Source: Methanosuratincolales archaeon (GTDB lineage Archaea > Thermoproteota > Methanomethylicia > Methanomethylicales > Methanomethylicaceae). From it: a stretch of DNA of 64,000 nucleotides. Made by a program: the position numbers and the translations under genes. This document shows, piece by piece, positions 7,291-29,085 of this stretch (its first letter is position 1; the number at the start of each line of letters is the position of its first letter). Under the pieces are notes generated by a model, which saw only the letters and a program-made list of their open reading frames with translations, did not search any database and was not told the origin of the DNA. The stretch is taken from positions 10,174 through 74,173 of the forward strand of contig JACIVQ010000001.1 of the NCBI GenBank assembly GCA_014361445.1, given 5' to 3'.

Positions 7291-7586
7291 CTTTGGGCTC
7301 TGGTCTGATGTCACACTTCATCCTTTTTTGTCCGTAATACCAGCACTCATCATAGCCCAATTATCCTAACACTTATTTTTTTAATAAACTTGACGGACCG
7401 TTCAAAAGGTTTATTAAGATCCATAATAATAATTGGATGGACAATCCGTCCATATAGTGTCATCTCACCCACCAAATTTTTCTACTTTTTTGGGTCAGTA
7501 AGTAGGACAATTGAGTAGTTTAGGCTCTGACCACACTCCTGCCGATAAGGTTAAAACGGGCAATATTTTATAGATATAAAATACTG

Positions 7587-8663
7587 GTGATAGTGTTGTC
7601 GATTAAGGTTGCCATAGTGGGTGTGGGTAACTGTGCATCAGCCTTGGTCCAAGGGACTTATTTCTACAGGGATGCGCCCGAGGACAGAGAGATACCAGGG
7701 CTTTTACACGTCAACATGGGAGGATACCACGTAAAGGATATAGAGTTTGTGGCGGCCTTCGATGTTGACGCCAATAAGGTAGGCAAAGACCTATCAGAGG
7801 CGATATTTGCAAAGCCGAACAACACAAGGAAGTTCTGCGATGTGCCAAAGATTGGGGTTACAGTAAAAAAGGGGCCTGTTATGGACGGTCTGGGCAAGTA
7901 CCTCAAGGAGTTCTTGACCGTAAGCGAGGAGGAGCCCGTGGATGTAGCAGAGGAGTTGAAGAGATCTGGGGTGGAGGTTGTTGTGAACTACCTGCCTGTG
8001 GGCTCTGAGCAGGCAGTGAGGTGGTACGCGGAGGAGGCGATCAAGGCGGGTTGCGCCTTTGTGAACTGCATGCCAGTCTTCATAGCTTCTGATGAGTCGT
8101 GGCAGAAGAAGTTCGCGGATAAGAACCTGCCAGTGGCTGGGGACGACGTAATGAGCCAGCTGGGGGCAACAGTGTTGCACAAGACCATCGCCAAGCTGAT
8201 GGTCGACAGAGGGGTGAGGATAACCGAGAGTTACCAGCTGAACATAGGAGGCGACACTGACTTTTTGAACATGCTAGAGGAGGCGCGCCTGGTCTCGAAG
8301 AGGATAAGCAAGACTTCTGCCGTCCAGGCAATGATCCCATACGATATACCCCTGAGGATCGGACCTTCGGACTATGTCGAATTCCTCGATAACAAGAAGA
8401 TCTGCTACATCTACATAAAAGGGGAGTATTTCGGAGGGACTCCGGTTCAAGTGGATGTAAAGCTGGATGTGTGGGACGCACCGAATAGCGGCGGGGTAGT
8501 GATAGATGTGATAAGGGCATGCAAGATCGCATTGGACAGGGGCATATCAGGGCCGCTCATAAGCGCCTCAGCTTTCGCATTCAAGCACCCACCACAGCAG
8601 ATGCCTTACGAGGTTGCTAAGAGGTGTTTTGAGGAGTTCATAGAGGGTAAAAGGGAGAGGTAG
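7587..8663 (+). CDS. ino1: myo-inositol-1-phosphate synthase
   Basis: The N-terminus VAIVGVGNCASALVQG...PGLLHV..GYHVKDIEFVAAFDVDANKVGKDLSEAIFA is near-identical in pattern to bacterial and archaeal Ino1 (M. tuberculosis type). A TATA-like element lies at 7566-7582, so the start may be a few codons downstream. Confidence 0.85.
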   Translation: MIVLSIKVAIVGVGNCASALVQGTYFYRDAPEDREIPGLLHVNMGGYHVKDIEFVAAFDVDANKVGKDLSEAIFAKPNNTRKFCDVPKIGVTVKKGPVMDGLGKYLKEFLTVSEEEPVDVAEELKRSGVEVVVNYLPVGSEQAVRWYAEEAIKAGCAFVNCMPVFIASDESWQKKFADKNLPVAGDDVMSQLGATVLHKTIAKLMVDRGVRITESYQLNIGGDTDFLNMLEEARLVSKRISKTSAVQAMIPYDIPLRIGPSDYVEFLDNKKICYIYIKGEYFGGTPVQVDVKLDVWDAPNSGGVVIDVIRACKIALDRGISGPLISASAFAFKHPPQQMPYEVAKRCFEEFIEGKRER

Positions 8664-9088: not shown

Positions 9089-10216
9089 TTACCTCCTTCC
9101 TCCCATTGTCAGTGCCATAATGCCCTTCTGTCCGTGTAGCCTGTTCTCAGCCTCGTCCACCGAGACAGACCATCTGTTGGAGAAGATCACTTCGGGTTCC
9201 ACTTCATAGCCAACATCGGCAGGTAGGCAGTGCATCCAGATGCTGTTCTTGCGAGTCCTGTCCATAAGCTCGGGCGTAGTCTTCCAAGCAGCGAGGTTGT
9301 GGGTCCTCTTGTACTCCTCGTGGAGCTTCTCGTCGTAGCCCCCAGCCTTCAGGAGCTCCCAGCTGCACCATCCCTTCGGATAGACCACGAGAGCGTCCTC
9401 GAATGCCTCTTCCATGCTGTGGACTATCTCGAACTTCGTGCCGTACTGGTCGGCGAGCTTTTTAGTATACTCCTCGACAGCAGGGTCCAGGTTGAATTTC
9501 TCTGGGTATGCTAGAGTGACGTCCATCTGGAGGAGTCTTGTGAAGAAGATTATGTTTGTCTGGGGGACTGCCACCGGCTTCCATGCGCCAGGGCTGTTGG
9601 CATAGCACATAACAAACTTCTTTCCTCTTAGGCTCCTGGCATTATATTTCTCTATCACAGTCATGATATCCGCGACGCCTTGACATGGGTGCCACATATC
9701 GCACTCCATATTAATCACAGGTACGGTTGAGGCCTTGGCGTACTCCCTCATTGTGAGGTTGCCCTCTCCGTAGTACTGACCCTTCACGTATCTCCTTATG
9801 GCTATACCGTCGCACATCCTGCTCATGATGGCGGCGGTCTCATAGATGGTTTCACCATGGGTTATCTGTAGCTTTCCGGGGTCCAAATCGTATGCTACGC
9901 CTCCAAGCTGAGTAATCCCTGTAATAAAGGACGACCTAGTTCTCGTGGAAGGGTTGAAGAACAACGTAAATAGCGACTTCCCTTTGCAGATGTTGTCGTG
10001 TCGCTGTCCCATTGCATATTGCCTTTTTAGGTCGAAGGAGACATCCAATACTGTCCAAAGCTCTTCGTCACTCCATTCTATCTCGGGAGCTATCCAGTGT
10101 TTCCCATGGAGTTCTGTTTTTACCAAATATCTCCCTCCGAGTTTTTGCTGGAATTGGGTATAAATTTTTGGTTTAATAATGCTTTCGCGAGGGTTAGAGG
10201 AAACTATCACAAACAA
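9089..10216 (-). CDS. YgeW-family (knotted) carbamoyltransferase; putative catabolic transcarbamylase
   Basis: 375 aa. STRTR carbamoyl-phosphate motif, and ITHGETIYETAAIMSRMCDGIAIR compared with YgeW IAHGETVRETANMISFCADAIGIR. Also MDVTLAYPE, SMEEAF.DA.VVYPKGW and HCLPA. HPCQ replaces HPTQ. The length and the extra segments are as in E. coli YgeW. Confidence 0.8.
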   Translation of the reverse strand: MFVIVSSNPRESIIKPKIYTQFQQKLGGRYLVKTELHGKHWIAPEIEWSDEELWTVLDVSFDLKRQYAMGQRHDNICKGKSLFTLFFNPSTRTRSSFITGITQLGGVAYDLDPGKLQITHGETIYETAAIMSRMCDGIAIRRYVKGQYYGEGNLTMREYAKASTVPVINMECDMWHPCQGVADIMTVIEKYNARSLRGKKFVMCYANSPGAWKPVAVPQTNIIFFTRLLQMDVTLAYPEKFNLDPAVEEYTKKLADQYGTKFEIVHSMEEAFEDALVVYPKGWCSWELLKAGGYDEKLHEEYKRTHNLAAWKTTPELMDRTRKNSIWMHCLPADVGYEVEPEVIFSNRWSVSVDEAENRLHGQKGIMALTMGGRR

Positions 10217-10224
10217 AAAAGAGG

Positions 10225-11604
10225 TTAGTTTAAGGGCTGGTACTTTCCTCTTGGGACGAACTTGCCCGTGCCCTTCTTGCCGACAAACTCCCTGTTGTAT
10301 ACGACGGGTTTGCCCCTCACAAAGACATGAATAGGCATACCCTTGACTTTGACCCCCTCGTATATGGAGTAGTCGATCCTCGAGTGGAGGTTCTCCTGGC
10401 TCAGCTCCATCTCGAAGTCTGGGTCGAAGACGACTATGTCTGCATCGCTGCCCACGTTCAGCGTGCCCTTCCTTGGATATAAACCGAAGAGCTTTGCCGG
10501 GTTGTAAGAGACCACCTCTACGAGCTTATTCAAGGATATCCTGTTCTTGGAAACGCCTTCGCTGTAGAGTATAGGGATCATGGTCTCTGTGCCAGGAACA
10601 CCGTTAGGAACCTTGGTGAAGTTGTCTTTCCCAAGGTCCTTCTGGGCGTCTGTGAATGTGCAGTGATCGGTTGCGACTGTGCTCAGCGTGCCATTTGCGA
10701 GCCCCTCCCAGAGGGCTTCGTTGTCTGCTTTACCCCTCAAAGGAGGCGACATTATATACCGCCTCCCCTTCGGCGATAGGTATTTCTCGTCGGTGAGTAT
10801 GAGGTAGTGGGGGCACGTCTCCCCATACAGGTTCGAATAGAGCTTCTTCATCCTTGAGAGCTCGGCTACGCCCTCCTTTGTAGACATGTGCACGATGTAA
10901 AGGTTCCCCCCGGCGGCTGCTGCCAGCGCCAGACCCCTGTGGACAGCCTCGCCCTCAACGAAGTTCGGTCTGCTCTTTGCGTGGTACTCCGCGGATAGCT
11001 TTCCCAAGGAGACATATCGCTCTATTAGGAGTTCCAGAACAGAGTTGTTCTCGGCATGTAGCTGGACCAAGAACCCGAGTCTTCGGCTCTCTTCCAACAT
11101 CCTGTATATCCTGCCATCGTCGCTCATCAGACCCTCCTTTCTGTATGGCATGAAGAGCTTGAAGCTTGAGACCCCAGCCTCGAGGACCTTGGGGATCTCT
11201 TTGACCAGGTCTTCCGTTAAGTTTGTCACAGCCACGTGGATCCCATAATCCACAACCACTTTGGGGTCAGCCTTGCCCCTCCAGAGGGATATGGTCTCCA
11301 AGAATGTTTTGTCCTTCGGCTGTATCGCGAAGTCCAGAATTGTGGTAACACCACCAAAAGCTGCTGCAATTGTGCCGTACTCAAAGTCGTCGACTGTAGT
11401 GGTTCCCATGAAAGGCATTTCCATGTGGGTGTGGGCGTCTATGCCCCCAGGCATAACATACTTGCCTGAGGCGTCCACGACCTCCTGCGCCTTTTCAGTG
11501 ATGTTTGAGGCGATTGCCACTATCTTGCCGTCTTTCACTCCGATGTCTGCTTTGAAGGTGTCCTTTGGGGTTACAATGGTTCCGTTCTTTATTAATAAGT
11601 CCAT
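10225..11604 (-). CDS. dht: dihydropyrimidinase / D-hydantoinase
   Basis: 459 aa cyclic amidohydrolase. N-terminal LLIKNGTIV...GKI.AI....DA.G..V.PGGID.HTH metal-binding motif and full-length similarity to the hydantoinase family. Confidence 0.9.
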   Translation of the reverse strand: MDLLIKNGTIVTPKDTFKADIGVKDGKIVAIASNITEKAQEVVDASGKYVMPGGIDAHTHMEMPFMGTTTVDDFEYGTIAAAFGGVTTILDFAIQPKDKTFLETISLWRGKADPKVVVDYGIHVAVTNLTEDLVKEIPKVLEAGVSSFKLFMPYRKEGLMSDDGRIYRMLEESRRLGFLVQLHAENNSVLELLIERYVSLGKLSAEYHAKSRPNFVEGEAVHRGLALAAAAGGNLYIVHMSTKEGVAELSRMKKLYSNLYGETCPHYLILTDEKYLSPKGRRYIMSPPLRGKADNEALWEGLANGTLSTVATDHCTFTDAQKDLGKDNFTKVPNGVPGTETMIPILYSEGVSKNRISLNKLVEVVSYNPAKLFGLYPRKGTLNVGSDADIVVFDPDFEMELSQENLHSRIDYSIYEGVKVKGMPIHVFVRGKPVVYNREFVGKKGTGKFVPRGKYQPLN

Positions 11605-11653
11605 TATAAAGCCTCCAATATTAATATAGAAAAAGTGTTGTTTAAACGCTTGC

Positions 11654-12862
11654 CTATTTTGTGACTTTCTTCCATGTTATGCATCCAGGCACAGGGCATA
11701 GATGCGTACAGAGGGAGCATGCGTCGCACTTCTCCTCGTCGACCTCGGCGGCTTTTCCTTGCTCGAACTTTATCGCCTGGTACCCGCCATCGCGACATGC
11801 CACGTAGCAGAGACCGCACTTTATGCAAAGGTCCTTGTTGATGCTGGCAACGACCGTGTAGTCCTTGTTGAGCTTCGACCAAGCGGTCAGTTTGGGGAGG
11901 CTCTTCCCGATGATCTCGTTAACCGAGGAGAAGCCTTTGTCAGCAAGGTAGTTGGTGAGACCGTCAACGAAGTCGGAAATTATCCGGTAGCCCCTCCACA
12001 TCACCGCGGTGCAGACTTGGACGCTGCCTGCACCCACGAGGAGGTATTCAACAGCATCCTTCCAAGTAGTTATTCCACCTATCCCAGAGACGGGGATGTT
12101 AGTTGCCTGAGCTATCTGGGCGACGCACCTTAGTCCAATCGGCTTGACGCCTGGTCCCGATAGACCGCCGAAGGTGCTCATCCCGTCGACGGTGGGTATC
12201 GGCTCAAATGTATCTATGTTGATGCCTATTAGACCGAGTACAGTGTTTATGGCAGAGATGGCATCGGCTCCGGCTTCCTCTGCAGCCTTGGCGGTGTAGG
12301 CGATGTCTGTGACGTTCGGTGTTAGTTTCACCATTACAGGGACCGAGGATCCGCGCTTTGCTGCCTTTGTGAGCTTTTGGATGAGCTCGGTCCTTTGCCC
12401 GATGAAGGCGCCCATCCCCCGTTCAGGCATCCCGTGTGGGCAGCCGAAGTTCAGCTCAATCATATCCACGCCCGCCTCGCTCACGACCCTGGCAAGCTCC
12501 TCCCAGTCCTCCTCCTTGCACTCGGCCATGATGCTCCCTATGAGCGCCTTCTCGGGGAACTTTTTCTTGATCTCTTTGATCTCCTTCACCCATGTGCCGA
12601 CGGGCCTCTTTGAGACCTCTTCGATGTTTTCGAAGAGTATCATCTGCTTCGTCTCGAAGCCCATCACGCCAAACCTGTTCTTTAGATCGTAGACAGGGGT
12701 CTTGTCTGGCTTTATGGTCTTGGTGACAGCTCCAGCCCAACCAGCCTCGAATGCCCTCATTATCATCTCGCCAGTGCATGTAGGTGGCGCCGATGAGAGC
12801 ATGTATGGGTTCTCCAGCTCAAGGTTGCAGAATTTTACGGATATATCTGGTTTTGAAACCAT
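11654..12862 (-). CDS. preA: dihydropyrimidine dehydrogenase subunit PreA-like (DHODH-fold with C-terminal 2x[4Fe-4S] ferredoxin domain)
   Basis: Collinear with E. coli PreA ([23 protein letters not shown]...). C-terminal CIKCGLCYVACRDGG and CDACSLCTHLCPV ferredoxin motifs. 402 aa. Confidence 0.85.
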   Translation of the reverse strand: MVSKPDISVKFCNLELENPYMLSSAPPTCTGEMIMRAFEAGWAGAVTKTIKPDKTPVYDLKNRFGVMGFETKQMILFENIEEVSKRPVGTWVKEIKEIKKKFPEKALIGSIMAECKEEDWEELARVVSEAGVDMIELNFGCPHGMPERGMGAFIGQRTELIQKLTKAAKRGSSVPVMVKLTPNVTDIAYTAKAAEEAGADAISAINTVLGLIGINIDTFEPIPTVDGMSTFGGLSGPGVKPIGLRCVAQIAQATNIPVSGIGGITTWKDAVEYLLVGAGSVQVCTAVMWRGYRIISDFVDGLTNYLADKGFSSVNEIIGKSLPKLTAWSKLNKDYTVVASINKDLCIKCGLCYVACRDGGYQAIKFEQGKAAEVDEEKCDACSLCTHLCPVPGCITWKKVTK

Positions 12863-12883
12863 ATTTTCTCACTTCCATAACTA

Positions 12884-14245
12884 CTATTTCTTTGAACTCT
12901 TACCTCCGGAGAGGAACTTGTCAATGGCAGCTGCAGCCTTCTTACCCTCAGCCACAGCCTCAACGACGGTCTCGCCGCCGTTTACGGCGTCGCCGCCCGC
13001 AAATATGCCCTTTATGGATGTGGAGAAGTTCTCGTCCACAACGATCAGCCCTTTCTCTGTCTTGACGCCATAGGACTTTAGAAGGTCTTCGTCCGGCTTC
13101 TGCCCTATCGCAACTATAACCGAGTCCACATCCAGGCGGAACTCCGAGCCCTTTATGGACCTTACGCCCCTCCTCCCAGAGGAGTCTGGCTCGGTGAGCT
13201 CCATCTTAACGCACTCAATCGCTTTGACGCTCTTGTCTCCTATTATCCGGACCGGGGCTGTGAGTAAGAGGAACTCCACGCCCTCCTCCCTCGCTTGGTT
13301 CCTGCCGTAGGGTACTGCGGGCATCTCGGCGAAGGATCTCCTGTAGACGATGTAGACCCTTTCGGCACCGAGCCTCACAGAGGCACAGGCTGCGTCTATG
13401 GCGGTGTCTCCGCCGCCTATCACGGCGACCCGCTTTCCCTTGAGGTCGGGCGCCTTCCCCTCTCCCATCAACCATTTTGCCACAGATTGTAGGAATTCCT
13501 GTGCGGGGTAAACACCATTTAGCTCCTCGCCGGGTATCCCGAGCTTCTGGGACTTTGTTGCGCCCACGCCAACGAAGACAGCGTCATACTCCTTAAGAAG
13601 TGGCTTTAGGTCGGTAATTTTCCTGTTTGTGACGAAATTAATGCCATACTCCTTTATGAGATCGATCTCAGACTCGGGAACAGACCAGGGTGCCTTCCAA
13701 GGAAGGATGCCGTAGAGCAGAAGGCCTCCGGGTCTTGGGTTTGCATCGAAGACCGTGACGCTGTAGCCCATTCGGGCGAGCTCGTATGCTGCCGAGAGAC
13801 CGGCGGGACCAGCACCCACAACTGCAACCTTCTTGTCCTTGGATCGTGATTTCGGGAATTTCACGAGACCCTTGAGCTTCTCTTTCTCGTAGGCGAACCT
13901 CTGGAGCATAGATATAGCCACAGGCTCCTCGTTCAAGTTCCTCCTTACGCACTTGGACTCGCAGAGGCGCTCAACTGGACAGACGTAGCCGCATTCCCCT
14001 CCTAAGATGTTGCTCTCGCGTATGACTTTGGCAGCCCCATAGAAGTTTCCAGTTTTTATGCGGTATATGAACTCGGGGATGTTGATCCCAGCTGGGCAAG
14101 CCGAGATGCACGGAGCGTCGAAGCACATAAGGCACCTTGAGGCTTCGTACACAGCAAGCCTGTCGTCGAGGTTTGAGACGTATGGAGCGAAGCCAGAGAT
14201 CCTCTCATGCGGAGGAATAGTTTTAGTATGGACTCTACCTGACAT
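12884..14245 (-). CDS. preT: dihydropyrimidine dehydrogenase subunit PreT-like (GltD-like FAD/NAD(P) oxidoreductase with N-terminal Fe-S domain)
   Basis: EASRCLMCFDAPCISACPAG...ECGYVCP..LCESKC N-terminus, VAVVGAGPAGLSAAYELARMGYSVTVFD dinucleotide fold and C-terminal GGDTA. Its size matches PreT rather than the large YgfK/GltB proteins. Confidence 0.8.
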   Translation of the reverse strand: MSGRVHTKTIPPHERISGFAPYVSNLDDRLAVYEASRCLMCFDAPCISACPAGINIPEFIYRIKTGNFYGAAKVIRESNILGGECGYVCPVERLCESKCVRRNLNEEPVAISMLQRFAYEKEKLKGLVKFPKSRSKDKKVAVVGAGPAGLSAAYELARMGYSVTVFDANPRPGGLLLYGILPWKAPWSVPESEIDLIKEYGINFVTNRKITDLKPLLKEYDAVFVGVGATKSQKLGIPGEELNGVYPAQEFLQSVAKWLMGEGKAPDLKGKRVAVIGGGDTAIDAACASVRLGAERVYIVYRRSFAEMPAVPYGRNQAREEGVEFLLLTAPVRIIGDKSVKAIECVKMELTEPDSSGRRGVRSIKGSEFRLDVDSVIVAIGQKPDEDLLKSYGVKTEKGLIVVDENFSTSIKGIFAGGDAVNGGETVVEAVAEGKKAAAAIDKFLSGGKSSKK

Positions 14246-19465: not shown

Positions 19466-20422
19466 TTAGATCCGGCAGACTATATCCTTCCTCAGGTCGA
19501 CGCACCCGATCAGTGCAAGGAGAACCCTCGCATCCTCAGTATTCACGACCCCATGAGCCCTCTCCCTGACCACGAGTTTTGGCTTATATCCGATACCAAG
19601 GCCTACGTTCTCTATCATGAAGAGGTCATTTGCTCCGTCCCCCACGGCCACACATGCCTCTAAGCCCACGCCCACCTTAGCGGCGATTGTCTTTATCGCC
19701 TTGAGTTTTGCCTCAGGTCCGATCATCTCCCCCTCAACCTCACCTGTCAAGCGCCCATCCTTTACAATTAGTCGGTTGCTGAAGACATAGTCGGCTCCTA
19801 TCATCCTGCCGACGTGCTCGGCGGCAAAATCAAAGCTGCCCGTCACTATCCCTATCACGAAGCCAAGTTCCTTGAGTTTCGCTATCAACTCCCTGACCCC
19901 TGGGTTGATCTTTATTGAAGATTTAATCTGATCCAGAACCTCAACCGGGAGCCCCTCCAGTAGCTTTACTCTAGATCTCAGGGCCTCAAGGAAGTTTAAC
20001 TTTCCATCCATGGCAAGCTTAGTGATCTTCTTCACCTCTTCACCCACGCCCGCAGCCTTTGCCAGCTCCTCTATAACCTCCTGCTCTATGAGGGTTCCGT
20101 CAAGGTCGAATACTATGACCCTCTTTCCACACTTGTAGCTATGGTAGGACTCCGCCGCCAGCGCCAGGCCAACATCATCACAGCTGTTCTTTAGTATGTT
20201 CAATAGGACGTCCTTTTTCACAATGGATGTCCTGGTGTCAACAACCATTATAATAAGAAAGAGGTCGTTGAAGATGGTCGAAGCCCTGGTCTTTATTATG
20301 TTCGCATGGAGTCTTGCCAAGACTCCAGTCACCGTGGCAACTATGCCTGGACGGTCTTTTCCCAAGACTGTAATGACCAGCCTATCGTCCTCCAGCATAA
20401 TAAAAAGAAACCTCCAACCCAA
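19466..20422 (-). CDS. serB: phosphoserine phosphatase with N-terminal ACT domain
   Basis: N-terminal ACT (GKDRPGIVATVTGVLA), then HAD motifs VIVFDLDGTL and GDGANDL. 318 aa. Confidence 0.8.
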   Translation of the reverse strand: MGWRFLFIMLEDDRLVITVLGKDRPGIVATVTGVLARLHANIIKTRASTIFNDLFLIIMVVDTRTSIVKKDVLLNILKNSCDDVGLALAAESYHSYKCGKRVIVFDLDGTLIEQEVIEELAKAAGVGEEVKKITKLAMDGKLNFLEALRSRVKLLEGLPVEVLDQIKSSIKINPGVRELIAKLKELGFVIGIVTGSFDFAAEHVGRMIGADYVFSNRLIVKDGRLTGEVEGEMIGPEAKLKAIKTIAAKVGVGLEACVAVGDGANDLFMIENVGLGIGYKPKLVVRERAHGVVNTEDARVLLALIGCVDLRKDIVCRI

Positions 20423-20648
20423 GCTCGTGGCACAGGTAATCTAGCTTCTTGCGAAAGGTTTCGAGATCCAGTCCGGCAGCAAGTTTAATGAGCATGGAAA
20501 GTATGAAGATGCCCTTCATGACGACCTGATCCATGTCCTCAATGTTGCAACCAAATTCCGAGATCACTGAAGAGATCTCGGCAATTAAGCCAGGGCGATC
20601 CGGCCCAACAGTGGTTATAACCATGTACCTATCACGCATAGACTGCAC
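20382..20648 (-). CDS. stand-alone ACT-domain protein
   Basis: 88 aa. The motif TTVGPDRPGLIAEISSVISEFGCNIEDM is the ACT signature. Directly upstream of serB. Confidence 0.6.
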   Translation of the reverse strand: MQSMRDRYMVITTVGPDRPGLIAEISSVISEFGCNIEDMDQVVMKGIFILSMLIKLAAGLDLETFRKKLDYLCHELGLEVSFYYAGGR

Positions 20649-20726
20649 CGGGTGACCATCGAAGATTGTACAGAAAATCTAATTAAGTTTTCGTATTGAT
20701 ATTGGAAACATCACGAGGGAAGATGT

Positions 20727-21359
20727 TTGAGCAAGGTTCAACTTGAGGCACTCAAGGAGGCTCTGATCGAGCAGAATCAAAAGAGGGCGAAAGATCTCAC
20801 AGAGGAATTTTTGCGAGCAGGTGTGCCGCCAAAGGATATAATTGATGTGATATCTGACGGGCTAAAGGTAATTGGAGACTTATTTGAGAGGGGAGAGCTC
20901 TTCCTGCCAGAGGTCATGAGGGCAGCAAACGCCGCCAAGGCCTCATTGAGCGTCGTATTGCCAATGATGGTGAAGGAGAAGGCGGGAGAGGGGCGGGGAG
21001 TGATCGCGATAGGCTCGCTAGGACCGCACGACATAGGGAAGACCATTGTATCCTCTACGCTGATCGCAGATGGTTTCAAGGTGTTGGACATGGGCATAAA
21101 CGTGACGCCGAATGTTGTGGAGGACTTTTTGAGAGATAATGAGGTGGATATACTCGCCCTCTCAATCCTCCTCACCTCTGACATAGATAAATGTGCTAAC
21201 GTGATAGAGAGGGCAAGGAAGGTTAAGAGCGGAATTAAGGTGATGGTTGGGGGCGCAGCCATGAGCCCGGAGACGGCAAGAAAGATAAAGGCAGACGCAT
21301 ACGGTAGAGACGCAAACGAGGCGGTTAAGATAGCAAGGGAACTAACCGGGAGGAGGTAG
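20727..21359 (+). CDS. corrinoid (cobalamin-binding) protein, methyltransferase-associated type
   Basis: N-terminal helical B12-binding-2 domain plus a Rossmann B12-binding domain with GSLGPHDIGKTIV (DxHxxG-like) and MVGGAA. 210 aa. Confidence 0.75.
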   Translation: MSKVQLEALKEALIEQNQKRAKDLTEEFLRAGVPPKDIIDVISDGLKVIGDLFERGELFLPEVMRAANAAKASLSVVLPMMVKEKAGEGRGVIAIGSLGPHDIGKTIVSSTLIADGFKVLDMGINVTPNVVEDFLRDNEVDILALSILLTSDIDKCANVIERARKVKSGIKVMVGGAAMSPETARKIKADAYGRDANEAVKIARELTGRR

Positions 21360-21364
21360 AGAGA

Positions 21365-22246
21365 ATGAAGACAACAGTCATTGGTAGCTACCCAGTTGTC
21401 GGCGAGGGGCTGGAGGCTATAAAAAACGCGGTGAATGACCAGCTAAATGCGGGGATCGAGATAATCAGCGACGGGCAGACAAGGAAGGACATGGTATGTT
21501 ACTTTGCGGACCATATACCCGGGTTCAAGGTCGAGGATGAGAAGGCGAAGATAGTTGGAAAGATAAGACCGCCAGAAGAGACGCCAGTGGTTGATGACCT
21601 GATATTTGCCAGGGAGCTGGCAGGAGGTAAGGCTGAGGTGAAAGCAATAATTACGGGCCCGGTCACAATAGTCTTCTTTTCAGAGCTGACCCCAGAGGCC
21701 CCCTACGCAGGGTTTCGGGACGAGAGACTGTATGAGGACGTGAGCGCAGCCCTGGCAGTGGAGGCGGAGATCATGCAAAAATCGGGCTTTTCTAAGGTTC
21801 AGATAGACGAGCCCAGTTTCTCAATCGGGGCCCCCATGAACATAGGGAGGAAGGCGCTCGAGGCGATCGTGTCAGACTTGAAAGGGATTAAGGCGTTACA
21901 TGTCTGTGGTAACCTTAGGAGGGTCTTTAAGGAGATAGTGAAGATAGAGGGCTTTGATGTTCTGAGCTTCTCGTTCAAAGACAATGTGAGTAATTTTGAC
22001 AATGTTGAGAGGAAACTTCTGGAGGATTATTCAAAGAGGCTGGGCGTGGGGTGTGTAAGTACGATGAGCCCCGAAGCGGAGGACGTAGAGTCTATCAAGA
22101 AGGTGCTGAGTAGGGCGCTGGAGTTGTACGGAGTGGAAAACATAGAGTGGATCCACCCTGATTGTGGGCTGAGATCATTGAAGAGGGATGAGGCTTTCGT
22201 GAAGCTCAAGAATATGGTTATAGCGGCGAAGGAGCTGAGGATCTGA
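21365..22246 (+). CDS. metE: core methionine synthase (cobalamin-independent MetE C-terminal-domain type, zinc site intact)
   Basis: MKTTVIGSYP start typical of archaeal short MetE. Zn-ligand motifs VQIDEPSFS, ALHVCGN (His-x-Cys) and IHPDCGL are all present. 293 aa. Confidence 0.75.
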   Translation: MKTTVIGSYPVVGEGLEAIKNAVNDQLNAGIEIISDGQTRKDMVCYFADHIPGFKVEDEKAKIVGKIRPPEETPVVDDLIFARELAGGKAEVKAIITGPVTIVFFSELTPEAPYAGFRDERLYEDVSAALAVEAEIMQKSGFSKVQIDEPSFSIGAPMNIGRKALEAIVSDLKGIKALHVCGNLRRVFKEIVKIEGFDVLSFSFKDNVSNFDNVERKLLEDYSKRLGVGCVSTMSPEAEDVESIKKVLSRALELYGVENIEWIHPDCGLRSLKRDEAFVKLKNMVIAAKELRI

Positions 22247-23118
22247 TGGTGGAAGTTCGTTTGGGGAATATCAAATTTGGCGACGTTCCGGTCATGATAG
22301 GCAGCCTCTTCTACAAATCGGACAGAAAAGTCATAGACCACAAAAAAGGCGAGGTGAACATGCAGGCACTTCTGAAAGAGCTGAAGAGCGTGGAGAGACT
22401 GAAAGAGAGAACAGGGCTGCTCCACGCCATAGACATAATAGCAGAGACTCCGGAGGCGATGGATAGGTACATAACCATCCTTTCGGAGGCAAGTGATGAC
22501 CCATTGCTCATTGGCGGACTAAATGAAGAGAGCAGGATTGCTGGCTATAAAAAGGCATCCGAGTTGGGTCTGGCGGGCAGGTGTGGGGTAAACTCGGTCT
22601 CCCTAAACACGAGTGAAATGGAGCTCGAGCGCATAAAGGAGAGCGGGATAAGATTTGCGATAGTTCAAACATTGGACCCTGCGGCGGTTTACCCTGAGGA
22701 GAAGCTTGGGGTTTTGAAGGGAGGACTCCTGGAGAGGTGCAGGAATGCAGGCATTACCAGCATGGCCGTAGATGTAGGTATAATAGATTTCACAAGCGTC
22801 TGGCTAGCGGCAGAGTCCATAAAGGCTGTTAAGAATGAATTGGGACTGCCAGCAGGGTGTGCGCCTTCCAATATCGCATACCAGCCGCTATTGAAGAAGA
22901 AGGTTACAAAGAGAGTTGCGAGATCCATGAATGTGGCGCTCAATACCATTATACAGATCGCAGGGGCGGACTTCATACTATACGGACCGCTTAAGGCGGC
23001 AGGGTACATATTCGAGGCAGCAGCCACCGTTGAAGGCATAAAGGCTTACGGGGAAAGGTTGAAGGGGAAGGTCTTTGAGAAGAGCCACCCACTTTATAAG
23101 TTCCTAGCGAAACTGTGA
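22246..23118 (+). CDS. MtrH-like pterin (methyl-H4F/H4MPT):corrinoid methyltransferase
   Basis: Collinear with MtrH: VPVMIGSLFY compared with PTVLVGTIFY, GGADFILYGPLKAAGYIFEAA compared with GGDFVLYGPIENAKMAF, and C-terminal EKSHPLYKFL compared with EEHPFYKLL. Confidence 0.7.
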   Translation: MVEVRLGNIKFGDVPVMIGSLFYKSDRKVIDHKKGEVNMQALLKELKSVERLKERTGLLHAIDIIAETPEAMDRYITILSEASDDPLLIGGLNEESRIAGYKKASELGLAGRCGVNSVSLNTSEMELERIKESGIRFAIVQTLDPAAVYPEEKLGVLKGGLLERCRNAGITSMAVDVGIIDFTSVWLAAESIKAVKNELGLPAGCAPSNIAYQPLLKKKVTKRVARSMNVALNTIIQIAGADFILYGPLKAAGYIFEAAATVEGIKAYGERLKGKVFEKSHPLYKFLAKL

Positions 23119-23366
23119 TATGTGGAGGGGTAATTTTGGTTCTGGCATGTGTCCTTATACACTGCAAGCCTGGAACTGCCACAGACGTACTGAACAAGAT
23201 AAAGGAGATAAAGGGCGTGAGAAGAGCCTTCGAGACGCTTGGGGCATATGACGTCGTTGTGGAGTACGAGTTTCAGAGCCTCGAGAAGCTGGGGATAACG
23301 GTTTATGAGATCGCAAAGATGCCAGGTGTGGTCTCAACCGAGACCTTGATAGAGACCTTGTTGTGA
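23115..23366 (+). CDS. stand-alone RAM (Lrp/AsnC C-terminal ligand-binding) domain protein
   Basis: 83 aa with the beta-alpha-beta-beta-alpha-beta RAM pattern (...ILVLACVLIHCKPG...VVVEYEFQS...). Confidence 0.5.
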   Translation: MICGGVILVLACVLIHCKPGTATDVLNKIKEIKGVRRAFETLGAYDVVVEYEFQSLEKLGITVYEIAKMPGVVSTETLIETLL

Positions 23367-23367
23367 G

Positions 23368-23601
23368 GTGGTAGCTATGGTCCAAGTTCTAGTGCTAATA
23401 AATGCCGAGAAAGTCTCAGTCTTAGATATTGTCGGTAAACTGGAGAAGATGCCGGAGGTATTAGACGTATTTCCAACTTTTGGCAGGTTCGACGTCGTGG
23501 CATTCTGCAATGCCGAAAATAGGGAGAGAGTGAAAGATTTGGTGCGGAAGATAGCGGCATTAGAGGGCGTTCTGAAGACAGAGACCTTGGTGGAGCTCTG
23601 A
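23368..23601 (+). CDS. stand-alone RAM (Lrp/AsnC C-terminal ligand-binding) domain protein
   Basis: 77 aa. Paralogous to the preceding ORF (VLVLINAEKV...FDVVAFCNAEN...). Confidence 0.5.
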   Translation: MVAMVQVLVLINAEKVSVLDIVGKLEKMPEVLDVFPTFGRFDVVAFCNAENRERVKDLVRKIAALEGVLKTETLVEL

Positions 23602-24585: not shown

Positions 24586-25326
24586 CTAAAAAGAGCCCTT
24601 TAATGCCCGCCTCAGCGACTCCCTCATCTCGGGTGGAAATTTTTTTGGCTCTTGTGATGGGAGTTCCAAGCCCTTTATTGCGGCGAGCCCAGTGCCGTAG
24701 AGTACCCAGCCAATGACGTACTCAAAGAGATCACGGTCATGCCCAGAAGATTCTCCAAGGAGGCTCAGTAACTCTATTATTACGTATTGAGAGGCCTCTA
24801 TGCATGAATGGAGAGATTCGAGGAGTTCCTCCCCGACTAGAAGGGAGTCCCCGAGACCCTGCAATAGCCCTTTAAGGGTTGCGGCATCTGAATGTGAGAA
24901 AGTGTTGTCCAAGGATAGTATAAAGAGGGCTTTTTCAGTTTGGATGTCCGGATAGACATAACATCTGGATACCTTTGAGAGGGGATAAAGGTCTCTGAGT
25001 TCCTTGATAGGGAGGCCCTCAGTGAGAGAGATTATAGGTTTCCCTCTGAGGAGGTGCCAGATCTCGTCGGCTATGGTGTAGGCGCGGTTTCTCTCAGAGC
25101 CAATAAAGATCAAGTTGCACCATTTTGCAAGTTGGTGGAGTTCTTCAAGATCACATGAGGTAGGGAGGATTCGGACCTCCTGGTTTAGCCTGCACAGATT
25201 CTCTAGTGGCCTGCCTCTATCTTCGCAACCCAGTACCAGAAGCTTCAAGGTTTTCACCACTAAATGATCCTCTATTTCGACGCTAGTGAGCTGCCCACGG
25301 CTAAATCCTGTGGGCTTCATGCTCAC
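24586..25326 (-). CDS. hypothetical protein, Rossmann-like
   Basis: 246 aa ORF. Alternating hydrophobic beta-strand segments (LKLLVLG, VRIL, CNLIFIG). No confident family. Confidence 0.3.
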   Translation of the reverse strand: MSMKPTGFSRGQLTSVEIEDHLVVKTLKLLVLGCEDRGRPLENLCRLNQEVRILPTSCDLEELHQLAKWCNLIFIGSERNRAYTIADEIWHLLRGKPIISLTEGLPIKELRDLYPLSKVSRCYVYPDIQTEKALFILSLDNTFSHSDAATLKGLLQGLGDSLLVGEELLESLHSCIEASQYVIIELLSLLGESSGHDRDLFEYVIGWVLYGTGLAAIKGLELPSQEPKKFPPEMRESLRRALKGSF

Positions 25327-25468: not shown

Positions 25469-26248
25469 ATGTCCTTCAATAAACTCAAGGCTTTAGGTTT
25501 CTCTGATTTGGAGATAAAGATCTATGAATATGTGATCAAGAAAGGGAGTTGTAAGAAAGAGGACTTGCTGAGAGACCTTGAGTTGACTGAGGAGGGTTTA
25601 AATGAGCATCTCTCGAAGATGTCATCGCTAGGCGCCATAGAGCTTGTTGATGATTTGGTTTCGCCTTCACCGCCGGGGTCATTCCTTCAAAAGTACTTGA
25701 GGCTAAAGGAGGTTGAGTTAGATCTTCAGCTAGCCGAGCTAAGGAAATTGGTGAACGAACTGCAGATGACCCTAGAGCCCGTATACAGCGAGAGCAAGTA
25801 CGGAGTAAGGCTGGAAGAGTTGTGGCAGAGCATAGACAGCCTATCCAGCATGGAAATGGAGACCATAAGGATGATTTCCCGTGCTAACTCAGAAATATCT
25901 ATATTGGCGGAGCGGTTCAGTTACTATCCGAAGGTAAGGGAGGAGTTGCTTTCAGCCTTAGACAGGAAGGTCAGGGTCAGAGTCCTCCTGCTGGCACTTG
26001 ATAAGGAGAATGAGGGGAGGGTCGAGGACCTGAAAAGGAACAAGATTGAAGTGAGGTTGGCTAGATGCGATTGGAGGAGTGTGAGGTTTACTTTAGTGGA
26101 CAAGAGAGAGGTAATATTCCTAATTTGGGCAAAGAAGAGCGGAGAGAACAGGGTTTACTACAGACCTGGCTACTCGAAGAACCCGGGAATGGTGAGCGTT
26201 TTCTCGGACTCCTTCGAGTATCTGTGGGACAAGGCATTACAACTCTAA
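25469..26248 (+). CDS. TrmB-family transcriptional regulator (second copy)
   Basis: N-terminal wHTH LKALGFSDLEIKIYEYVIKKGSCKKEDLLRDL. Confidence 0.5.
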   Translation: MSFNKLKALGFSDLEIKIYEYVIKKGSCKKEDLLRDLELTEEGLNEHLSKMSSLGAIELVDDLVSPSPPGSFLQKYLRLKEVELDLQLAELRKLVNELQMTLEPVYSESKYGVRLEELWQSIDSLSSMEMETIRMISRANSEISILAERFSYYPKVREELLSALDRKVRVRVLLLALDKENEGRVEDLKRNKIEVRLARCDWRSVRFTLVDKREVIFLIWAKKSGENRVYYRPGYSKNPGMVSVFSDSFEYLWDKALQL

Positions 26249-26289
26249 AGAAAATAAGGGTCTCCCTCGGAACCGCAATAGAACTGGGT

Positions 26290-27210
26290 TTGATCGAAGG
26301 CCTCCAAAAGGAGGCACCAACCACAGCTTACCTTTTTATGATCGGTAAAGGTTGCAGGGGGAAGTGTGCCTTTTGCCCTCAGTCCACGGGTCTGTCGGAT
26401 AATATATCGAGGGTGAGCTGGCCCGAGTTCCCAGTAGAGGACGTATTGAGGGTTATGAAGGGCAACCGAAGGTTCGAGAGGGTTTGCGTTCAATGCGCCG
26501 ACGAGGACGGTTTGATCCTTCACATTAGGCGCTTTATAGAGGTCTTGAGGGAGTGGGCAAGCATTCCGATTTCGGTCTCTATACCTCCAGCCCCTCCCGA
26601 GGATTTGCGCATGTTGGAGGGTGCAGGTGTGGATGTATTGACAATCCCGCTGGACTGCGCCAATGAAGAATTATTCCGCAGAATCAAGGGGAGAGAGTGG
26701 GAGTACCACTGGAGAGCTCTTGAGAAGGCTTTGGAGGTCTTCGGACCTAAAAGGGTCGGGACGCACATTATAGTAGGGCTTGGGGAGACGGAGAGAGATG
26801 TTGTTAATGTGGTTTCAAAATGCCACAGGACTGGAATTGTGCCCTCCCTCTTCGCCTTCACGCCAATAAAGGGGACCCCCCTTGGAGGTAGACCGCAACC
26901 TAATTTGAGGTCTTACAGGAGGTTGCAGTTGGGCAGGGAGCTGATAATCACCGGTAAGGCGACTGAGAAGGATTTTTCGTATGATAGTCTCGGCAGGATT
27001 ATGAAGATCAACGTTAGCAGAGATGTAATAGAGGAAATTGTGGAGAAGGGGGATGCCTTCATGACCAGGGGTTGCCCAGGCTGCAATAGACCGTATTTCA
27101 ACGAGAAGGTTACCGGACCAGTTTACAATTACCCCCGCAGACTGGATAGGATGGAGGTTGAAGAAGTCAGGAGGGAGTTACTTGGAGGGATTGAGGGTCT
27201 TAAGGTTTGA
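26290..27210 (+). CDS. radical SAM protein, LipS1/LipS2-like (two-component archaeal lipoyl synthase candidate)
   Basis: CRGKCAFC radical SAM motif with additional Cys clusters (CVQC, GCPGC). Adjacent to split lplA. The start is uncertain (TTG 26290 or ATG 26338). The ORF-track start at 26065 overlaps trmB. Confidence 0.5.
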   Translation: MIEGLQKEAPTTAYLFMIGKGCRGKCAFCPQSTGLSDNISRVSWPEFPVEDVLRVMKGNRRFERVCVQCADEDGLILHIRRFIEVLREWASIPISVSIPPAPPEDLRMLEGAGVDVLTIPLDCANEELFRRIKGREWEYHWRALEKALEVFGPKRVGTHIIVGLGETERDVVNVVSKCHRTGIVPSLFAFTPIKGTPLGGRPQPNLRSYRRLQLGRELIITGKATEKDFSYDSLGRIMKINVSRDVIEEIVEKGDAFMTRGCPGCNRPYFNEKVTGPVYNYPRRLDRMEVEEVRRELLGGIEGLKV

Positions 27211-27940
27211 GGTGCATGATCCCTTCTACAACATGGCTCTGGACGAAGCTATTGCACACTCTGTTGGAGAAGGGGGAAGCCCGCCAACACTCAGGCTTTA
27301 TGGGTGGTCCCCGAGGGCGGTCTCCCTAGGGTATTTCCAGGAGGTTCTGGAGGAGGTCGATTTAGAGTTTTGCAGGGAGAGGGGGATAGAGGTTGTTAGG
27401 AGGATAACAGGCGGCGGAGCGGTCCTCCACACAGAGGGGGAGCTGACATACAGCTTCGTGGTGAAGGACGATGGTTCTCTTGTTCCAAGCGACATTGAAG
27501 AAAGTTACAGGAGGATATGTGCACCCATAGTGGCGTGTATTAGGAGGCTGGGTGGCGATGCGTCCTTCAGACCAATAAACGACATTGAAGTTGGGGGAAA
27601 GAAGGTCTCGGGAAATGCTCAGACAAGAAGGTTCGGGGCGGTTCTTCAGCACGGCACCTTGTTACTCTCCATGGATTATTCGTTGCTCGGCGCACTGAGA
27701 CCAAGGGTTGAAAAGTTGAAAGACAAGGGGGTTTCAGAGGTCGGCGGGAGGGTCACAACATTGAAGGAGGTACTTAAGTTTGAGCCGAAGAGGGAAGGAG
27801 TAGCTGAGATCTTAGCGGAGGAGTTCGGAAGGGCGTTTCAACTTGAGTTGAGATACGGAAATATCACCGATAGGGAGAGAAGTCTTGCGGGTGACCTTGT
27901 TAGAAAGTACAGGTCAAAAGATTGGACTTTCAGGAGGTAG
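27191..27940 (+). CDS. lplA: lipoate-protein ligase A, N-terminal catalytic domain (LplA-N)
   Basis: BPL/LPL catalytic domain, including RITGGGAVLH..GEL.YS and K(K)VSGNAQ lysine motifs. Confidence 0.8.
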   Translation: MRVLRFEVHDPFYNMALDEAIAHSVGEGGSPPTLRLYGWSPRAVSLGYFQEVLEEVDLEFCRERGIEVVRRITGGGAVLHTEGELTYSFVVKDDGSLVPSDIEESYRRICAPIVACIRRLGGDASFRPINDIEVGGKKVSGNAQTRRFGAVLQHGTLLLSMDYSLLGALRPRVEKLKDKGVSEVGGRVTTLKEVLKFEPKREGVAEILAEEFGRAFQLELRYGNITDRERSLAGDLVRKYRSKDWTFRR

Positions 27941-27944
27941 GCTG

Positions 27945-28223
27945 GTGGAGATAATAGGGGTAAAGAAGGTGAAAGGGGGAAAACTCCTCAAGGTTCTGGT
28001 TATTGAGGAAGGAGGCGTTATAAAGGAGGCAAAAATCTCCGGAGATTTCTTTGTTCATCCAGAAGAGGCTATTGACGAGATTGAGGCGTGCTTAAAAGGG
28101 GCAGATATGAGCAGAGTGAGGGAAGTTTTGAGGGATTTCGCCAAGAGGAGGACGGTCAGGACTGTCGGCTTTACTCTTGATGATATCACAGAGGTCATCG
28201 AGGGGCGGGGCAAATTTGCTTAG
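27945..28223 (+). CDS. lipoate-protein ligase C-terminal domain protein (LplA-C/LplB)
   Basis: ~92 aa. The size and position after LplA-N are as in Thermoplasma. A GGAGG lies 6 nt upstream of the GTG start. Confidence 0.55.
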   Translation: MEIIGVKKVKGGKLLKVLVIEEGGVIKEAKISGDFFVHPEEAIDEIEACLKGADMSRVREVLRDFAKRRTVRTVGFTLDDITEVIEGRGKFA

Positions 28224-29085
28224 TTACAGACCAAAGCCCGCCGTGTACAGCGTTTCAATTACCGGTCACAGGTGTGATCTGGGGTGCCAACACTGCAGAG
28301 GGAAGTATCTGAAAGGCATGGAGGCGGTGGAAGATCCGGACGGCCTCATTAGAACCTTCCTGAAAGCAAAGGAAAAGGGTGCAAAGAACATCTTGATTAG
28401 TGGGGGGTTTGACAGACTGGGAAGACTCCCGGTCATGGATTTTCTAGGCGCCATAAGTCAAGGCAAAAGTATGACTGGATTGGTTGTAGAGATCCACTCA
28501 GGGTTGAACAGGGAGTTAGGCAGATTGAGGGACGCTGGCGTGGATGCCCTACTCCTGGATGTTGTAGGAGAGCAGGAGACTATTGAGAGGTACATCGGAG
28601 GGCAATGGTGTGCTGAAGAGTATGCGGAAGTCTTGCGTGAGGCAAAGAGGTTCATCCCTTTAGTGGCAGCGCACATCCTAGTGGGGGTAGACAGAGGAGA
28701 GATAAGGGGGGAGTTCAAGGCGGTAGATATGGTGGCAGAGGCCAAGGCTGATGCCCTCTCCATATTGACGCCTATGGACGCAAGGTCGCCCGAGCTCGAC
28801 GAAATTGCCAAGGTAATGGAATATGCTAGGGAGAGGTTCGGAGATCACCTGACTTTGGGGTGTATGCGGACTAGGGGAAAAGATCGACCGGAGATAGAGA
28901 GGCTCGCGGTAGATTTGGGTTTCGACGGTATAGCAAATCCGCTCCGCAGGACACTGAGGTACGCAGAGTCCACTGGAGTCAAGGTGATTGAGGTTGAGGG
29001 TTGCTGCGTCTTCACTCAAGATAGAATTCCCATGAACACCAAAGGTCTTCCGGGTGCTCGTCAGGCGGACACAAAAGGCACCTGA
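28177..29085 (+). CDS. radical SAM protein, second LipS-like partner
   Basis: CDLGCQHC (Cx3Cx2C) with extra cysteines (LGCM, VEGCCVF). The start is uncertain (28177 ATG, 28216 TTG or 28243 GTG). Confidence 0.5.
   Translation: MMISQRSSRGGANLLSYRPKPAVYSVSITGHRCDLGCQHCRGKYLKGMEAVEDPDGLIRTFLKAKEKGAKNILISGGFDRLGRLPVMDFLGAISQGKSMTGLVVEIHSGLNRELGRLRDAGVDALLLDVVGEQETIERYIGGQWCAEEYAEVLREAKRFIPLVAAHILVGVDRGEIRGEFKAVDMVAEAKADALSILTPMDARSPELDEIAKVMEYARERFGDHLTLGCMRTRGKDRPEIERLAVDLGFDGIANPLRRTLRYAESTGVKVIEVEGCCVFTQDRIPMNTKGLPGARQADTKGT

Follow-up and report, generated by a model that had tools for sequence, protein, structure and literature searches.

Methionine synthases of the core MetE type, which consist of the catalytic domain only, raise the question of where their methyl group comes from. 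In vitro these enzymes use methylcobalamin, albeit with a poor Km, and do not use methyl-folate (PMC7005905, PMC7857596). Because of this poor Km the actual donor is assumed to be a corrinoid protein, with MtrA predicted for MesA and the corrinoid iron-sulfur protein CoFeSP for MesB and MesC (PMC7857596, PMC7005905). These proposals are predictions, and the natural donor has been an open question since the enzyme of Methanothermobacter was found to use methylcobalamin poorly. The locus described here bears on this question. It lies in a stretch of 64,000 nucleotides from a Methanosuratincolales archaeon (GenBank assembly GCA_014361445.1, contig JACIVQ010000001.1, positions 10,174 to 74,173), hereafter called the window. 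At positions 20727-23601 a core MetE is encoded beside a dedicated corrinoid protein (CoP) and a candidate for the enzyme that loads it, an MtrH-like methyltransferase, in a lineage that lacks both Mtr and CoFeSP and is now available in pure culture. We propose, with about as much confidence as doubt, that the genes of this operon specify a corrinoid-dependent methionine synthase made of three polypeptides, together with its own regulators. The assignment as methionine synthase is strong, while a MetH-like loading step, though plausible, is unproven.

The stretch 20727-23601 is one operon of five real genes (Table 1). Five consecutive open reading frames (ORFs) on the plus strand fill it, exactly at the coordinates at which a preliminary description, made from the sequence alone, had placed them. 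The domain types named there agree with our own assignments, which are based on Pfam and NCBIfam profile matches of the window ORFs and reach scores far beyond chance. The CoP stop codon and the ATG of MetE are separated by 5 nt, and a GGAGG ribosome-binding site is located 5 nt ahead of this ATG. At the junction of MetE and MtrH either an ATG that overlaps the MetE stop codon or an alternative TTG 14 nt downstream could serve as start, the TTG being the one chosen in public gene calls. The motifs GGAGGGG and GAGGTGG, both resembling ribosome-binding sites, precede positions 23136 in RAM1 and 23377 in RAM2, respectively. A ribosome-binding site is present ahead of every gene of the operon. Based on the placement of these motifs and on the public gene calls, the starts at 22261 for the MtrH-like protein (285 aa), at 23136 for RAM1 (76 aa) and at 23377 for RAM2 (74 aa) are more likely than those that open the longer reading frames. 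An oligo-T run follows the last stop codon. Compared with three orthologous loci, all five genes show dN/dS values of 0.02-0.10 (Nei-Gojobori): 0.09-0.10 for CoP, 0.05-0.07 for MetE, 0.07-0.08 for the MtrH-like protein and 0.02-0.04 for RAM1, which is under the strongest constraint in the operon. A search of the whole 64-kb window against Rfam gave neither a riboswitch nor any other RNA family.

Table 1. The five genes of the operon, the divergent unit and the inverted repeat between them (positions in the window)
Feature	Coordinates	Strand	Length	Profile match or description
Corrinoid (B12-binding) protein CoP, cap + Rossmann	20727..21359	+	210 aa	PF02607 and PF02310, 3e-18 each
Core (catalytic-domain-only) MetE-type homocysteine methyltransferase, MesA-related	21365..22246	+	293 aa	Meth_synt_2, 3e-38
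MtrH/MtgA-family pterin-type methyltransferase, TIM barrel	22246..23118 (likely start 22261)	+	285-290 aa	Pfam MtrH, 8.5e-43
RAM1, stand-alone RAM (Lrp/AsnC C-terminal) domain, demi-FFRP (demi-feast/famine regulatory protein) type	23115..23366 (likely start 23136)	+	83 aa	PF01037, 7e-11, without helix-turn-helix
RAM2, stand-alone RAM domain	23368..23601 (likely start 23377)	+	77 aa	PF01037, 4e-10
Palindrome GAAAATCTAATTAAGTTTTC	20673..20692	.		Inverted repeat in the 78-nt divergent ACT/CoP spacer
Small ACT-domain protein, divergent from the operon	20382..20648	-		Pfam ACT_6, 1.3e-19
ACT-SerB phosphoserine phosphatase, divergent unit with the ACT gene	19466..20422	-		TIGR00338 serB, 232.7 bits (cutoff 144)

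Which reaction does the MetE-type protein catalyze? Transfer of the methyl group from a CH3-Co(III) corrinoid protein to homocysteine, yielding methionine, is very probably its function, a view for which the conserved residues, the profile scores, the chemistry known from the family and the operon speak, as does the lack of those donors that have been proposed for other core MetEs. PF01717 spans residues 17-289 of the protein, and the folate-binding N-terminal domain (PF08267) scores under its cutoff. Against the archaeal NCBIfam model NF002119 ('methionine synthase') it obtains 256.7 bits (2.6e-76), which is about 1 bit short of the cutoff of 258, and a Baldrarchaeota homologue obtains 298.4 bits. 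Active-site residues were read from an alignment to the MetE of T. maritima and 80 relatives. The zinc motif HxC...C (His179, Cys181 and Cys267) and the homocysteine-binding residues Ser8, Gln38 and Asp148 turned out to be invariant in the 81 family members. An identical MetE is on record in the metagenome-assembled genome (MAG) GCA_038801675.1 of Candidatus Methanomethylicia (Verstraetearchaeota).

The mtrH/CoP pair of the Methanomethylicia is usually read in another way, namely as a catabolic module that feeds unknown methylated substrates to methanogenesis (PMC10033731, PMC6421429). If so, MetE would act as a methyltransferase of the methylcobamide:coenzyme M (CoM) type, and its catalytic domain is indeed distantly related to MtaA-type enzymes, as seen from weak NCBIfam matches of about 1e-7 to CoM methyltransferase models. 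However, methionine synthase models match the protein roughly 70 orders of magnitude better. Furthermore, the residues that bind homocysteine's amino and carboxyl groups are invariant, whereas CoM has neither group. On the basis of residues and profile scores we rejected MetE as a CoM methyltransferase. The same MetE clade also occurs in organisms that are not methanogens (Asgard archaea, Dehalococcoidia, Nitrospinota), the operon carries amino-acid-sensor domains and adjoins serB, and the genomes already hold 2-3 copies of mtaA. Of all readings considered here the catabolic one is the least likely, and we regard it as very improbable.

Within the zinc site one residue departs from the family pattern. 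The preliminary description had taken all zinc ligands to be present, but only three of four were found, since the fourth, a Glu in other MetE proteins (E642 in T. maritima, E665 in E. coli), is replaced by Ser203. This position is Ser or Ala throughout the Methanomethylicia orthologues; 34/34 methanogen MesA proteins and other stand-alone archaeal copies keep the Glu. In the characterised core MetE (MesB) of Dehalococcoides the fourth ligand was modelled as Asp (PMC7005905), and Glu may thus be dispensable. Wherever MetE is linked to an MtrH and/or a corrinoid gene (20 + 4 + 4 loci in three archaeal lineages), the Glu is missing and Ser, Ala or Gly is found instead. It is also missing in copies of the Dehalococcoidia that have no such neighbours. 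While the Glu-less lineages are not monophyletic, this was derived from a neighbour-joining tree without support values, and for this reason we treat a loss of Glu that tracks the linkage to MtrH and corrinoid genes as a lead and not as a result.

To what extent are the genes of the operon kept together? A MetE alignment scan of one genome per species, covering bacteria and archaea, left 80 loci, the flanks of which were analyzed by tblastn and profile searches. The arrangement SerB<-ACT<-|->CoP->MetE->MtrH->RAM1->RAM2 is kept at 19/19 other Methanomethylicia loci, as far as the contigs reach, and down to 50-60% protein identity. In 53 of the 80 loci MetE stands alone; these belong to classical methanogens, three Odin-, Prometh- and Hodarchaeota, Dehalococcoidia, Nitrospinota and Ktedonobacterales. 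Four Baldr/Odinarchaeota-like loci comprise MetE followed by MtrH, with an MTHFR-family gene upstream in both loci examined, and in four Jord-/Freyarchaeia loci MetE is convergent with genes for a methyltransferase of the MttB family and for a corrinoid protein.

Some of these loci deserve a separate description. In the Baldr/Odinarchaeota-like loci L025 (5059-7826) and L028 (5080-7832) the genes for MTHFR, core MetE and MtrH follow each other on the same strand, and no corrinoid protein is encoded within 6 kb. Their MtrH retains the catalytic Asp, and their MetE is devoid of the Glu ligand. A hidden conserved corrinoid partner encoded after mtrH in L028, L088 and L090 was considered and rejected, as the respective proteins are mutually unrelated and two of them resemble membrane proteins. 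In locus L041 (5974-9015; likewise L042, L044 and L045) the end of MetE is 15 nt away from the convergent MttB-family gene, which is followed by a gene for a canonical corrinoid protein with the loop GDIHDLGK. This Jord-/Freyarchaeia arrangement hints at methionine synthesis from methylamine or a quaternary amine. In locus L038 both CoP and the MtrH-like protein align as two pieces each (5370-5986 and 6888-7713). Frameshifts or assembly errors could account for this, and so, possibly, could a local decay of the operon.

The corrinoid protein that stands first in the operon obtains 133 bits against TIGR02370 and does not reach the cutoff of 215. Its closest solved structures are MttC (7xcn) and MtmC (3ezx), while it is only 32-36% identical to MtmC, MttC, the Asgard MttB-linked protein and the other corrinoid proteins retrieved. 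In its lower-ligand loop, GSL--GPHDIGK, the DxHxxG motif has kept its His and its Gly, the Asp is replaced by Gly and two residues are deleted. The variant GPHDIGK is fixed in 20/20 CoP orthologues. No gene for MtmB, MtbB, MttB or MtaB was found in the operon or among the annotated ORFs of the 64-kb window.

These findings bear on the main rival of our proposal. CoP might be methylated by a substrate-specific methyltransferase (MT1) that is encoded elsewhere, such as MtmB or MtaB, so that MetE would drain methyl groups to homocysteine while the MtrH-like protein would export them to a pterin for biosynthesis. The hosts fit this scenario in that they are methyl-reducing methanogens which possess mtmB, mtaA and several corrinoid proteins but have no methyl branch of the Wood-Ljungdahl pathway (PMC12244365). 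MtgA and MtxA, the closest characterised relatives of the MtrH-like protein, move methyl groups from corrinoid to pterin, and MetE adjoins the MttB-family methyltransferase and its corrinoid protein in Jord-/Freyarchaeia. However, the latter genes are convergent and not co-transcribed, and substrate-specific methyltransferases normally have an adjacent cognate corrinoid protein, whereas the operon contains no such enzyme. The low identity of CoP to MtmC, MttC and the Asgard MttB-linked protein speaks against this scenario as well. In addition, a CH3-pterin product would be useful only with the very reductase that these genomes miss. On balance we judge such a distribution of methyl groups to be unlikely, though deserving serious attention.

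The third catalytic component belongs to the MtrH family in fold and in most of its pterin-binding residues. It obtains 147 bits against PF02007 (gathering score 22.8) but stays under the cutoffs of the NCBIfam models NF002142 (219.9 < 287), TIGR01114 (131 < 271) and NF047990 for MtgA (156.7 < 550), and NCBI names its orthologues 'hypothetical protein'. Among PDB sequences it matches MtgA of D. hafniense best (135 bits), followed by MtxA of Methermicoccus (116 bits) and the Mtr-complex MtrH of M. mazei (87 bits). The AlphaFold model (pLDDT 94.8) superposes on these three proteins with TM (template modelling) scores of 0.86-0.92, namely 0.92 for MtgA and 0.91 for the Mtr-complex MtrH. Beyond these, every structural neighbour is a barrel that binds pterins (MeTr, the folate domain of MetH and dihydropteroate synthase, DHPS), with MetH folate domains being only distant ones (TM about 0.56-0.65).

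To map the pterin ligands we used the list that Badmann and Groll gave for MtgA. The protein keeps S32, D75, N129, D194, S226 and N227, thus 6/7 pterin-ring ligands, among them the Asn that contacts N5. In contrast, D102 is replaced by Gly and H38 by Asp, and both changes are found in 64/64 members of the clade. Asp and His occupy the two sites in MtgA, MtxA, the Mtr-complex MtrH and the Asgard MetE-linked MtrH. In MtgA the exchange D102A abolishes activity (Badmann and Groll). Around the lost Asp the clade shares the motif LIGG(L/M)(N/D)EE(S/T)R, which reads LIGGLNEESR in the window copy. A gap in sequence identity sets the clade apart, with at least 60% inside and at most 40% to every other MtrH-like protein. 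LIGG was also found in a few MtrH-like proteins of Bathyarchaeia, and the Asp is therefore not universal. The Asn or Asp two residues downstream (N/D92) may substitute for it. In the MeTr/MetH lineage the position equivalent to MtgA D102 is presumably occupied by Asn instead of Asp.

Such a conserved alteration could also mean that the donor has changed. One might envision that the same core of CoP and MetE is served by an MtrH-like protein which D102G and H38D have retooled to load from an unrecognised pterin or from a non-pterin methyl compound. The two pocket residues changed in 64/64 proteins, the new conserved motif GG(L/M)(N/D)EE, the isolation of the clade under the NCBI family cutoff and the lack of a known route to methyl-pterin in the genomes would all be in line with this. 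Nevertheless, the retained pterin-ring ligands, including the N5-contacting Asn, and the exclusively pterin-binding structural neighbours point the other way, and the LIGG motif in Bathyarchaeia suggests that the Asp may be dispensable or replaced by N/D92. We consider a retooled loader to be quite unlikely.

Our preferred reading, in which the MtrH-like protein would load CoP from a methyl-pterin, is based on three lines of reasoning. First, it is the sole candidate loader in the operon. Second, the Asgard MTHFR-MetE-MtrH clusters tie the pair of MetE and MtrH to methyl-pterin metabolism, although they leave the direction undecided because MTHFR can also work oxidatively. Third, it would provide, as a soluble protein, the function of MtrH/MtrA from which MesA of classical methanogens is predicted to be fed. 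Both the direction from pterin to corrinoid and the identity of the pterin are nonetheless much less certain than the transfer to homocysteine.

What is known about the hosts has to be taken into account here. Methanomethylicia are methyl-reducing methanogens without the Wood-Ljungdahl pathway and the Mtr complex (PMC10033731). According to a published gene table, six of their MAGs comprise no ftr, mch, mtd, mer, mtrA-G or cofC/D/G/H but exactly one mtrH and one ramA, the latter on a scaffold other than that of mtrH. They also carry mtmB, 2-3 mtaA and several corrinoid proteins. One of the six, LCB019-004, corresponds to our locus L018. Locus L022 was left out of the argument; it may represent a Methanomethylicia relative with Mtr and the Wood-Ljungdahl pathway. 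In this table the gene numbers of mtrH and of a corrinoid protein entered as 'MtbC1' are two apart, and consequently the unlisted gene between them is the MetE described here. This neighbour of the mtrH/CoP pair has previously been noticed in print only in passing: Loh et al. (2021) mention in one sentence that the pair lies beside a metE homologue in Ca. Methanomethylicus and might be anabolic (PMC7886697).

Several points weigh against our reading. Each of the three catalytic components has lost a residue, a change fixed in this clade: MetE lacks the Glu zinc ligand, CoP the Asp of DxHxxG and the MtrH-like protein the Asp that matches the essential D102 of MtgA, in addition to its H38D exchange. 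The published Methanomethylicia MAGs are devoid of mer, mtd, mch and ftr as well as of most genes for F420 biosynthesis, and consequently have no known route to methyl-tetrahydromethanopterin (CH3-H4MPT). Those soluble MtrH homologues that have been characterised (MtgA and MtxA) work from corrinoid to pterin. No MTHFR of Methanomethylicia was among the 29 matches to the Baldrarchaeota MTHFR, a miss that we do not count as absence since the word-indexed protein search is too insensitive. Finally, synteny that is conserved in a single class carries less weight than a co-occurrence in distant lineages would. Decay of the operon, which the three divergent active sites might suggest, is ruled out by the dN/dS values of 0.02-0.10 together with the invariance of the variant motifs. 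Thus, the view of the preliminary description that these genes form a functional equivalent of MetH assembled from separate modules held only in part. Its gene content and its idea of separate modules, here of non-MetH type, that together act like MetH are supported by the operon, the conservation, the homocysteine triad and the Asgard MTHFR clusters, whereas its loading step is called into question by the loss of the Asp that is essential in MtgA, the missing methyl branch in the MAGs and the opposite direction of the homologues.

Given the observed gene content, operon organisation, conservation and pattern of kept and lost residues, we infer each chemical step of the following mechanism. 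The MtrH-like TIM barrel would methylate the Co(I) form of its dedicated CoP from an N5-methyl-pterin. The short MetE would bind homocysteine via S8, Q38 and D148, activate the thiol on its His/Cys/Cys zinc site and take the methyl group from the CH3-Co(III)-protein to release methionine. CoP molecules occasionally trapped as Co(II) would be repaired by a RamA that is encoded elsewhere in the genome. The two RAM proteins would probably act as sensors of an amino acid (Met, Ser or one related to these), thereby tuning the system, while a palindromic divergent promoter would couple expression of the operon to the ACT/ACT-SerB unit. No RamA-like gene is present among the annotated ORFs of the 64-kb window, as had already been remarked in the preliminary description. 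Since ramA is encoded elsewhere in related genomes, this does not constitute a gap in the system. The S-adenosylmethionine (AdoMet) reactivation domain PF02965 was found neither in the operon nor among the annotated ORFs of the window, and the same ORFs include no other mtr genes.

How does this system compare to known ones? With MetH (EC 2.1.1.13) it would share the overall chemistry, from methyl-pterin via a Co(I)/CH3-Co(III) corrinoid to zinc-activated homocysteine, and it does share a homologous B12-binding module of cap and Rossmann domain (MetH matches of 1e-20 to 1e-31). However, its homocysteine module is of the PF01717 type and not of the PF02574 type with a Zn(Cys)3 site, which none of the five proteins matches, and its pterin module is an MtrH (PF02007) and not PF00809. 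In addition, it is distributed over three polypeptides, has no AdoMet reactivation domain and lacks the Asp in the DxH loop. Based on these sequence features the system does not belong to the MetH family. Multi-polypeptide B12-dependent methionine synthases have been described before, namely the three-part MetH of Phaeobacter inhibens (PMC5764234) and MtgBCD of Ruegeria pomeroyi (PMC12478193), and the Ruegeria corrinoid protein serves both methionine synthesis and demethylation (PMC12478193). Like the operon presented here, these systems employ a separate corrinoid protein and a RamA-like reactivator encoded elsewhere. However, they are built from bacterial MetH-type pieces, whereas the archaeal system has non-orthologous replacements, of MetE and MtrH type, for two of its three modules.

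Closer to the window MetE are MesA of Methanothermobacter and MesB of Dehalococcoides, which likewise consist of only one MetE catalytic domain (about 300 aa) with the HxC...C zinc motif, and which use methylcobalamin as donor in vitro. The window protein is 38-42% identical to MesA of methanogens and also has Gln in place of E. coli E484, a replacement that Price et al. consider to be a signature of MesA and MesC (PMC7857596). MesA has been described as limited to methanogens with Mtr (PMC7857596). The genes of classical methanogens stand alone and encode the Glu ligand, while the clade described here is Glu-less and linked to CoP and MtrH. MtgA of D. hafniense, MtxA of Methermicoccus shengliensis and the Mtr-complex MtrH resemble the MtrH-like protein in family, fold and type of corrinoid partner. 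They differ from it at D102 and H38, and neither an MT1 of the MtgB/MtoB type nor mtrA-G is encoded near the operon. An isolated mtrH beside a corrinoid gene is also known from CoP-MtrH couples of Bathyarchaeia and other archaea. Yet the pairs of this type that we retrieved are convergent, lie among genes of tetrahydromethanopterin metabolism (Mch, Fwd), have Gln for His in CoP and are not accompanied by adjacent MetE or RAM genes. The CoPs encoded beside the nearest MtrH-like proteins from outside the Methanomethylicia, again in Mch/Fwd context, are those of L085 (5938-6582, minus strand) and L087 (5921-6571, minus strand). Their loop GN(I/V)QGLGK contains Gln instead of the cobalt-ligating His.

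Taken together, the system is best filed within the existing kinds 'core MetE' and 'corrinoid methyltransferase system'. One might go further and see in the three catalytic components, with their co-evolved altered sites, a distinct archaeal class of B12-dependent methionine synthases. Its loader would use a donor outside the Wood-Ljungdahl pools of CH3-H4MPT and CH3-folate that are missing in these methanogens, its control would be exerted by demi-FFRPs, its promoter would be shared with serine synthesis, and the Glu-less MetE would represent a subtype adapted to protein-bound methylcorrinoid. For now such a class appears rather doubtful to us.

The regulatory part of the operon consists of two small RAM proteins, RAM2 being 33% identical to RAM1. 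RAM1 matches 2zbc and 2cvi/2e1a in the PDB, all of them AsnC-type proteins (75-83 aa) that stand alone, and RAM2 matches 2cyy/1ri7 (FL11), 2djw and 2zbc. Similar to the demi-FFRPs DM1 of P. horikoshii and the 83-aa AsnC-like protein of S. tokodaii, they comprise 75-83 aa and the RAM domain only, while differing from these in that they form a conserved tandem pair inside a biosynthetic operon. Both genes are present at every complete Methanomethylicia locus and were found beside MetE in no other lineage sampled. It is plausible that they sense an amino acid.

Upstream of CoP, the spacer that separates the operon from the divergent ACT gene contains a palindrome (Table 1). Exact matches to the pattern GAAAATSTAWTTAASTTTT occur at an unchanged position in 13 Methanomethylicia loci that differ from each other, whereas the rest of the spacer has diverged. 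Within the window the palindrome is unique, even if 3 mismatches are allowed. We regard it as a candidate for a shared symmetric bidirectional promoter of the form BRE-TATA-BRE (BRE, B recognition element) and/or for an operator. A palindrome regulon was also looked for in metagenomes and rejected: there are at least 120 matches, and of the 120 listed ones 117 arose by chance in AT-rich contigs (with a median GC of 33%), while 3 derive from the orthologous locus. The ACT gene is present at every Methanomethylicia locus that extends far enough. A link of SerB to the operon, via serine as a precursor of C1 units or of sulfur, can only be inferred.

If our proposal is correct, it has consequences beyond this single locus. 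The core methionine synthases would obtain named partners, and a defined three-protein system for reconstitution is at hand. The lone mtrH of the Methanomethylicia, routinely cited for methanogenesis from unknown methylated substrates, may be anabolic, which would affect metabolic reconstructions of Methanomethylicia and of other archaea that possess mtrH only. Moreover, the operon would represent a clear case of MetH-like chemistry built from non-homologous parts.

Besides the operon, the window contains further features. The gene at 3130-4593 (minus strand) could be mistaken for a radical SAM (S-adenosylmethionine) enzyme of methanopterin biosynthesis due to its Pfam match to Zn_ribbon_HMPTM, but it is instead the synthase Tes for tetraether (glycerol dialkyl glycerol tetraether, GDGT) lipids (NCBIfam, 666.8 bits, cutoff 450). 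The window is therefore uninformative on the pterin of the host. An ORF of 246 aa at 24586-25326 (minus strand) matches neither Pfam nor NCBIfam. In the near-identical public contigs L001 and L002 a gene is likewise called for it, next to nfo, again with no Pfam family recorded. At 26065-29085 (plus strand) a lipoylation cluster encodes a LipS2-type lipoyl synthase, the catalytic and C-terminal parts of LplA and a LipS1-type lipoyl synthase. Eleven co-directional genes at 41986-52420 (minus strand) form an aromatic amino-acid operon in the order split transketolase, DAHP synthase, DHQ synthase, dehydroquinase, shikimate dehydrogenase, GHMP-type kinase, EPSP synthase, chorismate synthase, chorismate mutase/prephenate dehydratase-ACT and prephenate dehydrogenase. 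Finally, four genes in a row at 9089-14245 (minus strand) encode a carbamoyltransferase-family protein, an amidohydrolase, a protein resembling dihydroorotate/dihydropyrimidine dehydrogenases with 4Fe-4S and a PreT-like flavoprotein, and look like a pyrimidine-related cluster.

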